Positions 57,795-64,000 of a DNA stretch of 64,000 bases are shown here, in pieces. The position numbers and the translations under genes are program-made. The DNA lies in contig CAYLLO010000001.1 of NCBI GenBank assembly GCA_964384805.1, forward strand, positions 5,623 to 69,622, in the 5' to 3' direction. The notes beneath the pieces were generated by a model. That model was not told the origin of the DNA and did not search any database. It worked only from the letters and a program-made list of their open reading frames with translations. Source of the stretch: an uncultured Staphylococcaceae bacterium. Lineage in GTDB: Bacteria; Bacillota_I; Bacilli_A; ML615J-28; CAG-313. Position 1 is the first letter of the stretch. Each line of letters begins with the position of its first letter.

Positions 57795-59372
57795 TTAATT
57801 AAAATTATTAATTGCATTTATTATAAACGGACATACCATCATTATTATAAAGATAAGAATTAAACCAACTATGTAATTAAAAATACGTTTTTTAGCTAAT
57901 TCTTTTTCTTCCATTTTAACTGCTAAAATTAACTTAGCTCCCATATAAATACTCCAAATACCTGATGTAATAATCAAGAGAACAATAAAAATTGTCTGTT
58001 GATTATTAATAATTTCTTTAAATTCTGTTTCTACTTTATCTATATTTGTATCAATAAATTTAGTTTCCAATAATCCACAATTTATACATTCATATATTTG
58101 TTTTAATTGATTATTAATAATTAATTCTTCTTTTAAAATATAATAATGATCGGAGGCTGAAATATTACTTTCATAATAATAATTACATCTTTTACATCTA
58201 AATTCTCTAATACCTTCTTTGTCACATGTCGCTTTAGAAATAACTTTGCTTTCAAAATCATGACCTAAAGCTGTAATTATTTCTATACCTTCTTCCATTC
58301 CACAGTTTATGCATACCTTAAATAAGCCTCCATTTTCGGTACAACTCACCTTTTTAACAACTTCATTTATACAATGGCCTAAAGGAGCCACATAATTAGT
58401 TTCCCTCTCCATTAAACATTCCGTACATTGTAATAATGTATATCCTTCATTTATACATGTCGGAGCAATAATTGTTTCAACATAATTGTGTTCAATCATT
58501 TCTAAAAAATTATCATATTTTTGTTCATGACAAGTAATGCATTCATAAATAGTATACCCCTGCGAATAACATGTAGACGCTAAATTACCTACTATTTTAT
58601 AACTATGTACAATACTAAATTTATCATACCCGATATTTCCATAACTATCAATTATTTCTATACTATAATTTCCTTCTTCTGAAATTATTGTGTTTTTTTT
58701 ATAAGGATTGCCATTTATATAAACTTCATATGAATCCCCTGACCATGTTAAATATACGGTATTTAAATCATAATTTCTTATAATATCCACTTTTGGGCTT
58801 CGCTTAATAGTAATTGAATAAGTATCCGAAATATTTCCTGCATAGTCACTTGCATAAAAATAATATGTTCCTTGCGTTTTTAAAAATGTATTATTTTTAT
58901 ATGAAGTATAATTACTTGAATCCGGTGTACAGACATAAACCATATCTAAACCTGACAGTTCATCTACTGCTTCAAAATAAATATATTCGGCATTCGTAAC
59001 ATCACCACTACAATATTCTTGATTATATGAATATATTTTACCAATTGGAGCAATTATATCTAAATAAACATAACTTTCAAGAGAAATATTACCAAAATTA
59101 TCTACTGCTCGAAAAGTATATTTTCCATTTTCAGAAGTTCTAGGAATTATTAAGGAATCAGCATAGCTTTTCCAAGTTGTATCATTAGGACCTTTATATT
59201 GTAAATAAGCTATACCGCTACCTTCATCACTTGCAGAGTAGTAAAAATTTTTATTAGTTGAATCACCATATATAGGTTTTCCATTAGCAGTATAAATACT
59301 TCCAACAGGACAAACAACATCAGAGCTGCTTGCAGAAACCTTTATCAAAAAACTAAATAACGTAAAGAGCAC
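57795..59372 (-). CDS. cell-surface protein: N-terminal Ig-like repeats, three CxxC...GH Cys-rich repeats, C-terminal double-TM anchor
   Basis: Signal-peptide-like N-terminus (GTG start, no clear RBS); three beta-rich repeats ending in D-x-(F/Y)GN-I(S/G); three copies of C-x2-C-x(10-14)-LGH-x(7-12)-C; two C-terminal hydrophobic helices; directly downstream of VirB4. Confidence 0.5.
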   Translation of the reverse strand: MLFTLFSFLIKVSASSSDVVCPVGSIYTANGKPIYGDSTNKNFYYSASDEGSGIAYLQYKGPNDTTWKSYADSLIIPRTSENGKYTFRAVDNFGNISLESYVYLDIIAPIGKIYSYNQEYCSGDVTNAEYIYFEAVDELSGLDMVYVCTPDSSNYTSYKNNTFLKTQGTYYFYASDYAGNISDTYSITIKRSPKVDIIRNYDLNTVYLTWSGDSYEVYINGNPYKKNTIISEEGNYSIEIIDSYGNIGYDKFSIVHSYKIVGNLASTCYSQGYTIYECITCHEQKYDNFLEMIEHNYVETIIAPTCINEGYTLLQCTECLMERETNYVAPLGHCINEVVKKVSCTENGGLFKVCINCGMEEGIEIITALGHDFESKVISKATCDKEGIREFRCKRCNYYYESNISASDHYYILKEELIINNQLKQIYECINCGLLETKFIDTNIDKVETEFKEIINNQQTIFIVLLIITSGIWSIYMGAKLILAVKMEEKELAKKRIFNYIVGLILIFIIMMVCPFIINAINNFN

Positions 59373-59411
59373 TATAAAAAAAGATATTTTTAAAATTTTA
59401 CTTATTGCTTA

Positions 59412-59978
59412 TCACCTTTCTTGAAATAAATTTTTAACATATTCTCCTGCAATTATTTTTATTGACGTTCTAAATTCTGTGGATCCTACATAAAATGCTT
59501 CTCCAATAGCAGCCGAAATAATTATTCGTTGTTCTTCATCATTAAAGGCTTCTCCTATTTTATAAACATCTATTACATCTTTCATATCTGGAGCTGATAA
59601 TTTAAATATAAAAAGATATTGACTATTTTTTAAAATTGTAGAAGTTTTATTTCTCAATTCACTATTACCATTCCAATCAGAAATATTTTGTGTTGCAGGG
59701 ATAAAACTACCATTATATTTCCTAATCCGTTTATTCATTTGATAAAAGAAATCTAATGCAATAGGATATTTAGAATCTATAAATAAATGAGCTTCATCAC
59801 AAATAATCATTGTTTTTAAATCTAACCCCTTCTTATTTAATTCCCTAGTATTAATAACCTCTTGTTCAATAAACCGAAAAATTAACAATAGTGATAGGTA
59901 ACTCTTTGATAAAATCTCTAAGTTTTCCCCCACTCCCCACCGTACGTGACAGTTTCCCGTCATACGGCGTTCCATCAT
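59412..59978 (-). CDS. VirB4-family conjugal transfer ATPase, C-terminal exon/fragment
   Basis: VirB4 C-terminal motifs IICDEAHLF and FIPATQNISD; first about 20-25 codons of the ORF translate group II intron domain V/VI, so the real exon probably starts near 59900. Confidence 0.6.
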   Translation of the reverse strand: MMERRMTGNCHVRWGVGENLEILSKSYLSLLLIFRFIEQEVINTRELNKKGLDLKTMIICDEAHLFIDSKYPIALDFFYQMNKRIRKYNGSFIPATQNISDWNGNSELRNKTSTILKNSQYLFIFKLSAPDMKDVIDVYKIGEAFNDEEQRIIISAAIGEAFYVGSTEFRTSIKIIAGEYVKNLFQER

Positions 59979-62917: not shown

Positions 62918-63980
62918 CTTTTTGATATAATTCGCTAAATCGATGATTAGAATTTTCCCTATAATAATGAATAGGTAAATATTGGTGTTTGGTAAATAAA
63001 TTAAAAATATTATTTGTTGGGTTATTAACTTTTTTTAAGATATGGCCAATTAGCTTTTGACCTAGTGGAACACTTAAGGTAAAAGCCGACAAAACCATTA
63101 ATTTAAAAATATTATCAGCTGATTTGGTTATATTAGGAATTGTAAATTCTAAGACTATTGGTAACATAAAATGATATAAATTTATCGTTAGAATATTTAC
63201 ATGTGTAATCATTAATTTATTTATAAAGCATTCAGTCCATTTTTTTAATCTTTCTCCGTTATCTAATGGAATTGTTGAAACAGATAATGGCATTATTAAA
63301 TATAATAATATTACTTCATATATACGTTTAATTAACTTGATAATTATGAAAAGAAAGGAAAATAAAATTATTATCGTTGTAATTATTCCTGGTAAAAATA
63401 AAAACTTTTCAGGATTAATCATTCCATTATTTTGCCATGCAATCGGAAAAACATTATTATTTGTAACATAATCACCAAACAATTTATCGATCGTTATAGT
63501 GTTGAAATCAATTTCATTTATTGAATAATCATTCAGCCACTCATCAACACAAAGTTCAAAAACTAAATTTGATATTTTTAAAGTGGCATCAATATTAAAC
63601 GTATTATTAATCATTCTAAATAAAACATTACTTAATATGATTGCCATTGTTGCTACTAATAATACAATCATAATTGAAAAAATAGCTAACAAAAACTTTC
63701 CAATCACATTAAACAAAGTATTTCTATTAGTAATCATTGTTTTTATAATCGTAATAATAGAAAATACTCCTATAAAAATAATAGTTAATATTAAAATATG
63801 TGAAAAAAGATTATTTATTATTGAATGTTTTAAGAAATATTCAATACTATTTACTGTATCAAATTGAAACCCAAAAGTATCCAAACTTATAGTATGTGAA
63901 AAAATTTCAAGAATTTTATCAATCAAATTTAATGACCAAATTATAATTTGTAATAACCATTCTTTAAAAAATATTAACAT
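62892..63980 (-). CDS. polytopic membrane protein, VirB6/TrbL-like conjugal transfer protein
   Basis: 362 aa, 6 or more TM helices; immediately upstream of and overlapping the VirB4 gene; GAGGG RBS. Confidence 0.4.
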   Translation of the reverse strand: MLIFFKEWLLQIIIWSLNLIDKILEIFSHTISLDTFGFQFDTVNSIEYFLKHSIINNLFSHILILTIIFIGVFSIITIIKTMITNRNTLFNVIGKFLLAIFSIMIVLLVATMAIILSNVLFRMINNTFNIDATLKISNLVFELCVDEWLNDYSINEIDFNTITIDKLFGDYVTNNNVFPIAWQNNGMINPEKFLFLPGIITTIIILFSFLFIIIKLIKRIYEVILLYLIMPLSVSTIPLDNGERLKKWTECFINKLMITHVNILTINLYHFMLPIVLEFTIPNITKSADNIFKLMVLSAFTLSVPLGQKLIGHILKKVNNPTNNIFNLFTKHQYLPIHYYRENSNHRFSELYQKGEKNAHST

Positions 63981-64000
63981 TTTTACCCTCTATAACAATG

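Follow-up and report, generated by a model that had tools for sequence, protein, structure and literature searches.

The 64,000-nucleotide stretch of DNA analysed here (the window), which derives from an uncultured Staphylococcaceae bacterium (GenBank assembly GCA_964384805.1, contig CAYLLO010000001.1), carries on the minus strand of positions 57795-64000 a group of genes related to those of conjugative type IV secretion systems (T4SSs). The locus is probably an exapted MOBless (relaxase-less) T4SS operon, the former mating-pair-formation (MPF) core of an integrative and conjugative element (ICE) of the MPF-FATA type, captured once in the ancestor of the host clade, which consists of uncultured, walled, low-GC (~27%) gut Bacilli. 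With the same confidence we take the genes in this region to be the 3' four-fifths of a chromosomal operon of five genes, A-B-C-D-E, that encode a relic of the coupling protein VirD4 (A), a putative VirB2-like pilin (B), a VirB6-like channel component (C), the ATPase VirB4 (D) and a surface adhesin fused to a pilin hairpin (E), and equally consider the relaxase, the anti-restriction genes, a working coupling ATPase, two small membrane proteins, TnpV and the serine recombinases to have been lost since capture. As the operon is fixed at one site and still under selection, it has probably been reused for something besides conjugation, a proposal that draws on sequence comparison.

A fixed operon in a clade of gut Bacilli

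A homologue search with the spliced VirB4 sequence returned >1000 homologues, which occur in two kinds of context. In every examined locus whose VirB4 is at least 65% identical to that of the window, and in one further locus reached through TruB (L174, 61% identical), the five genes lie between an Asp/Glu racemase gene and the core genes DUF368-truB-ribF-rpsO-pnp-engB. The operon occupies this same site in at least six lineages and in 7/7 clade loci examined, over a range in which TruB identity falls to 61%. Besides L174, these loci comprise that of a sister genome, seen as two halves that come from one sample (L090 and L176; VirB4 90% identical), L086/L087 (73%), a set of roe-deer metagenome-assembled genomes (MAGs; L003-L007, 69%, for example GCA_017472015.1), L092 (67%) and L091 (65%; GCA_054265135.1). 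The junction at which gene E is followed by DUF368 recurs in L002, L003-L007, L086/87, L091, L092, L174 and L176, and upstream of the racemase are found a 96-amino-acid (aa) gene, TmcAL, Mrp/ApbC, an acyltransferase, DUF1292 and RuvX.

The downstream end of the operon deserves particular attention, as a first-pass annotation of the window had placed here, near 57690-57800, the boundary of an integrated element. The distance that it gave from the module to DUF368-truB-ribF-rpsO-pnp, about 110 nt, is accurate: the stop codon of gene E is separated from DUF368 by a 112-nt spacer (57683-57794, minus strand). No att-like (attachment site) feature was identified in this spacer, and in the comparison with related genomes that had been recommended as a check, DUF368-truB was not seen joined to other sequence in any of the clade loci (7/7), the cluster being always present. 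The occurrence of one gene set at a single site in at least six lineages, purifying selection and the monophyly of VirB4 all argue against the proposed boundary; at 57683-57794 a gene set captured long ago comes to its end, and this is not where a mobile element has its att boundary. The limited sampling yielded no empty site at strain level, and a scan of metagenome contigs by alignment to DUF368 gave only distant homologues (<=39%) and no useful empty site either. The only locus without the cluster is that of a distant outgroup, L175 (TruB 51%, RuvX 63% and Mrp 59% identical), which has other gene content there. Its interval between TmcAL and truB (positions 3877-8848 of ERZ18533942 NODE_9) holds an operon resembling ComG or a type IV pilus system, with two N_methyl prepilins, T2SSF, T2SSE and small open reading frames (ORFs), together with aroC. 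The idea of a ComG replacement at this site was set aside as unproven, the interval being variable and the outgroup also lacking the racemase and DUF368 there.

The chromosomal VirB4 proteins share a single origin. In a neighbour-joining (NJ) tree of 68 VirB4 sequences they form one clade, recovered in 200/200 bootstraps on a 24-taxon subset, and their sister is the ICE-borne VirB4 of a low-GC Bacilli MAG, L074 (94% bootstrap). Pairwise identities of all five proteins, A to E, follow the pattern ((window, L086), L003), as do those of DUF368, TruB and RibF. Ratios of non-synonymous to synonymous substitution rates (dN/dS), calculated against the closest relative (90%, L090/L176), for which synonymous sites are unsaturated, were 0.05 for pilin B, 0.06 and 0.08 (0.076 against L176) for VirB4 exons 1 and 2, respectively, 0.20 for C, 0.21 (0.205) for E and 0.42 for A, the flanking genes giving 0.04 (PNP), 0.10 (TruB), 0.15 (DUF368) and 0.16 (RibF). 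In each of the lineages examined the five ORFs have stayed intact, despite 30-65% amino-acid divergence in genomes of ~26% GC, and the GC content of the cluster (0.20-0.33) equals that of its flanks, most related ICEs having 37-57%. Monophyly, co-divergence, dN/dS, intactness, composition and the core setting thus point to a single ancient capture followed by loss of mobility functions, vertical inheritance and continuing selection on four of the five genes.

The first-pass annotation had placed a relaxase, a coupling protein and an integrase past 64000. Exact-protein look-ups retrieved two short (~5 kb) contigs of run SRR10277277, each identical to the window over the overlap; the sequence past 64000 was read on one of them, L001, which extends ~1.8 kb further. 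This extension contains only the 102-aa pilin gene (B) and, directly upstream of this with a 1-nt gap, the 480-aa gene A, followed by 283 nt of non-coding DNA that starts with a terminator hairpin; nothing resembling a relaxase or integrase gene is present in these 283 nt. Gene A is homologous to the VirD4 of related ICEs (BLASTP E=2e-18, 26% identity over 256 aa), and its product gave no family match, Pfam T4SS-DNA_transf included. In the alignment with ICE VirD4 the Walker A motif GTTGSGKTT reads DKLHN--LD and the whole block containing Walker B and RSRG is deleted, a loss that is the same in 4/4 lineages read (the window and three others). Judged from this alignment gene A is a membrane-anchored, truncated, ATPase-dead VirD4 relic; with Walker A replaced and the Walker B/RSRG block gone, the coupling protein predicted beyond 64000 exists only in this form.

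The spacer upstream of gene A can be aligned in four lineages and is homologous to the intergenic region and terminator of the relatives, the terminator, which belongs to the preceding gene, and a TG-extended -10 element being present in 4/4. The -10 element reads TGATATAAT (L001 100-175, roughly equivalent to window positions 65890-65960; L086 7100-7160; also L003). A hairpin, CAAGTAAGG...CCTTACTTG, lies in the presumed 5' leader after the -10 and is kept in 3/4 lineages; a role in regulation or in RNA stability is conceivable. A second, GC-rich 8-bp hairpin, GAGGCGATAACTATCGCCTC (L001 2041-2060, ~64002-64021), separates the pilin gene from gene C; it has no T-tail on the coding strand and could set the stoichiometry of pilin to channel through mRNA stability or attenuation. 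Promoter scans gave nothing above shuffled expectation in this AT-rich DNA; in L001 only the terminator hairpins stood out.

The closest relatives outside the clade reside in complete ICEs, in which VirB4 is 57-63% identical to that of the window. These elements carry, in order, ArdC, DNA methylases, a 154-aa protein, a 435-aa relaxase-like protein and an intact 709-aa VirD4, then 508-aa and 112-aa membrane proteins, the pilin, the transmembrane (TM) protein, VirB4, an adhesin of 813-974 aa, TnpV and <=3 serine recombinases. The 435-aa protein beside VirD4 displays weak matches to MobP3 and MobA/VirD2. This arrangement occurs in ~70 GTDB species representatives, with GC contents from 26% to 57%, the family being common among Firmicutes of the gut, and the NCBI labels of the hosts include Christensenellales, Borkfalkia, Pumilibacter intestinalis, Clostridia and Bacilli. 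Low-GC Bacilli MAGs that contain such ICEs are L023, L026, L031 and L074. Thus, of the Gram-positive ICE architecture assigned by the first-pass annotation the ancestry is borne out, whereas its description as the flank of a present-day ICE is not. Indeed, no relaxase-like ORF was detected between the racemase and DUF368, nor in the 10-kb flanks of L003/L004, L086 and L174, and no recombinase adjoins the cluster at the clade loci examined. Set against the features by which CONJscan-type approaches recognize an ICE, the locus possesses VirB4 and MPF genes and is without a relaxase, a functional coupling protein, an adjoining recombinase or variable presence at the loci examined; as in MOBless T4SSs, it is a relaxase-less chromosomal cluster, vertically inherited, with a host-specific VirB4 clade. 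The neighbouring sequence on L001 holds no further mobility genes and the locus is conserved as chromosomal in relatives, the outcome that the first-pass annotation had itself named as incompatible with its proposal.

It should be noted that L003 contains a serine recombinase gene ~5.4 kb upstream of gene A, with Mrp, TmcAL and the racemase intervening, and that L086 lacks it. The gene (L003 304-1920; L004 1-1035) encodes a large serine recombinase with Resolvase, Recombinase and DUF4368 domains and is accompanied by two small ORFs upstream of Mrp; the corresponding position in L086 is occupied by an acyltransferase. That this recombinase is part of the T4SS element was rejected, given the housekeeping genes in between and its absence from L086; it probably belongs to a small mobile element of its own that has no connection with the T4SS operon.

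Components of the operon and the intron in virB4

All of the features that the first-pass annotation had described were recovered on the minus strand of 57795-64000. The protein it termed a VirB6/TrbL-like polytopic membrane protein is gene C (62892-63980, 362 aa), which contains several hydrophobic segments and matches NF045848, the MMCAP2_0566 conjugal transfer family, over residues 10-315 with 112.5 bits (cut-off 90). Weaker matches are to NF045889, to which the designation Mbov_0396 belongs (66.4 bits), and to the pLS20_p028 family (25 bits); there was no match in Pfam, including TrbL and VirB6, or by sequence in PDB. The 3' end of gene C overlaps the start of virB4 by 26 nt.

In its unspliced state virB4 appears as an ORF of 728 aa (60731-62917) and another of 188 aa (59412-59978), separated by ~750 nt without a long ORF. 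Pfam identifies P-loop_TraG, DUF87 and AAA_10 in these pieces, which jointly cover positions 3-893 of NF045975 (VirB4_plasma). The spliced protein of 869 aa scores 556.6 bits on this model, its best family, which is under the equivalog cut-off of 590, and can be aligned across the exon junction, over residues 468-862, with 4AG5, a solved structure of VirB4 (E=6.5e-43). Exon 1 (60784-62917, codons 1-711 plus 1 nt) encodes the N-terminal hydrophobic segment and Walker A (GKSGSGKS), and exon 2 (59412-59887, 158 codons), the VirB4 C-terminus beyond the insert, covers model positions 735-893 and contains Walker B (CDEAH); neither motif varies, whether among the chromosomal members or among those of ICEs. 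The first-pass annotation had called the gene a VirB3-VirB4 fusion, and only the VirB4 part of this name is verified, by NF045975 and 4AG5: the N-terminus is strongly hydrophobic (residues ~22-62), and a search with the VirB3 profile (PF05101) gave no match at E <=10.

The intron-like insert is indeed a group II intron, of 896 nt and devoid of an ORF (59888-60783). Rfam models for domains D1-D4 (RF02004, 154.2 bits, 60499-60702) and D5/D6 (RF00029, 56 bits, 59888-59972) both score above gathering, and the intron ends are 5' GUAUGAC and CACUAU 3'. Four observations fix the splice sites at 60784|60783 and 59888|59887. The spliced peptide ANAQM|LLIFRF agrees in length and sequence with the intron-less consensus of 12 homologues, ANAQMLLVFRF; the same site is uninterrupted in the 90%-identical relative L090, which reads CAAATGTTGTTAATT where the spliced window gene would read CAAATGC|TGTTAATT; an exon-binding sequence (EBS1, GCAUUU, intron nt 409-414) can pair with the intron-binding sequence IBS1 (AAAUGC), the last six exon nucleotides; and L090 has its own related intron 93 nt downstream, with the ends GUACGAC... 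and ...CACUAU|UU, the latter junction being read in L176. This sister-genome intron (L090 from ~4128 to the contig end; L176 1-29) sits at a look-alike target, GCTCATTTGT, compared with GCTCAAATGC in the window. The Logan assemblies, both the window-identical contigs of SRR10277277 and the sister pair L090/L176, break at the intron.

In a Clostridia MAG from goat rumen, an ICE carries a full-length relative of the intron at the identical position in virB4 (L079 5001-7741, 2741 nt); this copy encodes a 623-aa reverse transcriptase (RT)/HNH protein. The two introns are ~90% identical over the first ~690 nt, while the VirB4 proteins of their hosts are only 57% identical, which argues that the intron moves horizontally with ICEs and that it homed into the chromosomal virB4 and later lost its ORF. 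An RT/maturase ORF is absent from the 896-nt window copy, the intron-encoded protein having on this comparison been deleted, and no second intron copy or trans-acting maturase was found in the window. Measured against bacterial group II introns of the RF02004 D1-D4-5 class, the window intron has in common the D1-D4 and D5/D6 matches, the EBS1-IBS1 pairing and a full-length relative at its homing site. It differs in that its 5' end is GUAUG, not GUGYG, and its D5 starts with CGC, as read from alignments and as also seen in the L079 copy; and, in contrast to introns with an RT/HNH protein, its splicing would need a maturase in trans or self-splicing. The dN/dS of 0.076 for exon 2 nevertheless argues that splicing still yields a functional VirB4.

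Among the structural proteins pilin B is the most conserved of the set, with 71-94% identity within the clade and 75-82% to ICE pilins. It has two hydrophobic helices, and its scores lie under the family cut-offs (PF18895, 25.6 bits against 26.6; NF045849, 26.1 bits against 40). Gene E (57795-59372, 525 aa), the large Cys-repeat surface protein of the first-pass annotation, contains Cys-rich beta-ribbon repeats with five CxxC units and matches NF047446 (OmpL47-type beta-barrel domains) with 55.3 bits (cut-off 40). At its C-terminus are two hydrophobic helices with matches under cut-off to PF18895 (T4SS_pilin, 21 bits) and NF045849 (Mbov_0395-like, 20.6 bits). An AlphaFold 2 model built on 22 homologues (mean pLDDT 83.6) predicts three beta-sandwich domains, a Cys-rich beta-ribbon run and a C-terminal helical hairpin at residues 445-524, and the top Foldseek matches are Ig-like repeats of the fibre/adhesin proteins GhpA and SiiE. 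The protein varies between 511 and 747 aa in length and evolves faster than VirB4; its orthologue in the ICEs is the 813-974-aa protein after virB4, which also ends in a pilin domain.

Possible function, alternatives and related systems

Considered together, the parts suggest how the apparatus might operate. Hexamers of VirB4, which would be made only after the intron has been spliced because Walker A and Walker B reside on different exons, would energise the extraction of pilin B from the membrane and its assembly at the channel formed by C. Gene E, whose own pilin hairpin would either anchor it or allow it to co-assemble, would display its Ig-like and Cys-ribbon rod for contact or adhesion, while the dead VirD4 relic could serve at most as a structural adaptor or scaffold. 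The most likely output would be a surface filament or contact apparatus for attachment, non-conjugative exchange of macromolecules such as proteins or nucleic acids, or both. Export of DNA that depends on a relaxase is unlikely, as the operon is without a relaxase and a coupling-protein motor.

It could be argued that the operon is instead an uptake or contact machine of a monoderm cell, comparable to ComB, Ced or the Saccharibacteria systems, which imports DNA or other macromolecules or attaches cells to each other, with VirB4 as the sole motor and the dead VirD4 as scaffold. We regard this as a minor possibility; the ComG-like operon in the syntenic interval of L175 hints at an uptake role and proves nothing.

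Continued conjugation in a helper capacity is also unlikely. In such a scenario, for which chromosomal transfer in Mycoplasma offers a parallel, the operon would provide in trans the mating channel through which mobilisable elements or chromosomal DNA pass, the relaxase and coupling protein coming from elsewhere or from incoming ICEs. The closest curated families are indeed those of Mollicutes ICEs, the family of ICEs to which the operon is related circulates among low-GC Bacilli MAGs, and the homing of an ICE-borne intron into the chromosomal virB4 implies contact with such elements. The cognate coupling protein, however, is without its ATPase and C-terminal half in all lineages read, and neither a relaxase nor an oriT-like feature was seen in the 10-kb flanks.

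We consider it more doubtful still that the five genes are the functionless remains of an ICE, inert and heading towards pseudogenisation. The disappearance of the relaxase, the recombinases and the VirD4 ATPase motifs, an intron in virB4 without a maturase, and the relaxed evolution of gene A (dN/dS 0.42-0.73) are what a decaying remnant would display. In genomes of such low GC random stop codons are frequent, however, and the five ORFs have remained open; B, C, D and E, including the exon downstream of the intron, give dN/dS values (0.05-0.2) equal to those of their core neighbours, and the conservation of pilin B across the clade and the invariant catalytic motifs of VirB4 are likewise at odds with loss of function. 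Finally, it is highly improbable that the window shows the left flank of an intact and currently mobile ICE, with its relaxase, coupling ATPase and integrase past 64000 and att at 57690-57800, for although the gene families are conjugation families, the homologues with 57-63% VirB4 identity lie in complete ICEs and L003 has its upstream serine recombinase, the sequence past 64000 ends after the pilin and the dead VirD4 relic in a conserved promoter/terminator spacer, the site, bordered by housekeeping genes on either side, is identical in at least six lineages, the recombinase lies beyond Mrp, TmcAL and the racemase and is missing from L086, and the VirB4 proteins are monophyletic and co-diverge with flanks whose composition they share.

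Several points nevertheless weigh against the interpretation of the locus as an exapted MOBless T4SS. The mechanism is assembled from the nature of the parts. A relaxase or an intact VirD4 might be encoded elsewhere in the chromosome, the search having covered the loci and their flanks, and in the window genome only the 283 nt upstream of A were read, so that the absence of a relaxase rests there on the homology of the spacer and the synteny of the relatives. The VirB4 tree is of the NJ type only. Gene A evolves fast and may be decaying, and the intron is maturase-less; if no trans-acting maturase exists, virB4 could be freshly inactivated in this genome.

The exaptation of T4SSs that have no relaxase is well established for Proteobacteria. 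A DNA-uptake T4SS of the ComB type is recognized by its requirement for natural transformation, its action together with ComEC and the absence of ComG/type IV pilus components. MOBless T4SS exaptations have been described (PMC3548315), and the ComB system of H. pylori and the crenarchaeal Ced system (PMC3548315, PMC9905601) resemble the operon in that they derive from conjugation systems, contain VirB4, VirB6 and pilin-like components and do without a relaxase. They differ in T4SS class and cell envelope, ComB has no VirD4 relic, and DNA import by the operon described here is a conjecture; CedB of the Ced system is an active VirD4-like ATPase, whereas the VirD4 homologue in the window genome is dead.

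The nearest analogue is found in Patescibacteria/Saccharimonadia, where relaxase-less, chromosomally fixed, MPF-FATA-derived T4SSs with PF18895 pilins have recently been inferred (PMC12102498). Both systems are chromosomal, vertically inherited and without a relaxase, have monophyletic VirB4 proteins derived from monoderm conjugation systems, carry beside virB4 a VirB6-like protein and pilins of the PF18895-type, VirB2-like kind, which in the operon described here are putative, with scores under cut-off, and are presumed to have been co-opted for non-conjugative purposes. In contrast to the Patescibacteria system, the operon described here belongs to walled low-GC Bacilli and not to the candidate phyla radiation, represents a separate and much more recent capture, its VirB4 still being ~60% identical to those of extant ICEs, and keeps an ATPase-dead VirD4; in place of pilin arrays it has a pilin fused to an Ig-like/Cys-repeat ectodomain. 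Our literature searches found no published account of a vertically inherited relaxase-less T4SS in Firmicutes/Bacilli, or of this cluster.

Two families of mobile elements are also related to the operon. The ICEs of Christensenellales, Borkfalkiaceae and low-GC Bacilli of the gut (for example that of Pumilibacter intestinalis CLA-AA-M10, L040) have orthologous genes in the same order, including the adhesin-pilin fusion, with identities of 75-82% for the pilin, 31-37% for the TM protein and 57-63% for VirB4. Unlike these ICEs, the window cluster is without the relaxase, ArdC, methylases, the 508- and 112-aa proteins, TnpV and recombinases; it has a Walker-less, truncated VirD4, a fixed site and host-like GC, and does not vary in its presence. 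The Mollicutes ICE module (Mbov_0395, Mbov_0396 and Mbov_0397; NF045849, NF045889 and NF045975) supplies the best curated families for B, C and D, again in the same order. Membership of that module is contradicted by the VirB4 score (556.6 < 590), pilin scores under cut-off, a host with genetic code 11 and peptidoglycan genes, and the lack of a DDE transposase or other Mollicutes-ICE genes.

Ancestor (the extant ICE family) and derivative (the operon) are both available at ~60% identity, so that the parts that were dispensable can be read against those that were kept. The relaxase, the activity of the coupling ATPase, the recombinases and two small membrane proteins appear to have been dispensable; the pilin, the VirB6-like channel, VirB4 and the adhesin-pilin fusion were retained under selection, and would define a minimal T4SS core of monoderms, a candidate surface or uptake organelle of an uncultured gut lineage. 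It should be emphasized that software which detects ICEs by their VirB4 and MPF genes would wrongly report this locus as a mobile element.

The surrounding chromosome

The remainder of the window is ordinary core chromosome, with LepA, MutS/L, MiaA, Obg, ValS with a T-box, Mur ligases, MraY, a penicillin-binding protein (PBP) and MraW. The flanking gene that borders the operon, and which lies outside the system, encodes a DUF368/VCA0040-like protein resembling undecaprenyl-phosphate translocases (56891-57682, minus strand; PF04018, 83.9 bits), and is followed by truB, ribF, rpsO, pnp, RNase P RNA and engB. Divergence among these core genes is uneven within the clade. When the window stretches 52379-54529 and 55062-56003, and their orthologues in L003, were compared, PNPase was 94-96% and S15 94% identical, RibF and DUF368 being ~50% and ~49% identical, respectively, and synonymous divergence (dS) of PNPase, at 0.56-0.72, was below that of its neighbours (0.8-1.4).

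Three structured RNAs, all on the minus strand, were detected: a class B RNase P RNA (246 bits, 51945-52368), a T-box leader upstream of valS (125 bits, 31924-32153) and an L21 leader (47 bits, 22593-22663). Together they confirm a Firmicutes-type core chromosome with genetic code 11. Between the murE-like and PBP genes is an IS110-family transposase in two plus-strand ORFs (39875-40180 and 40334-40921), the N-terminal part corresponding to DEDD_Tnp_IS110 and the C-terminal part to Transposase_20, which represents a disrupted insertion sequence or a frameshifted copy. At 48554-50531 (minus strand) a 166-aa protein that is a candidate extracytoplasmic function (ECF)-type sigma factor overlaps a downstream 494-aa protein with one N-terminal TM segment, possibly an anti-sigma factor or surface protein, and a very AT-rich stretch (GC 0.15-0.19) lies just upstream.

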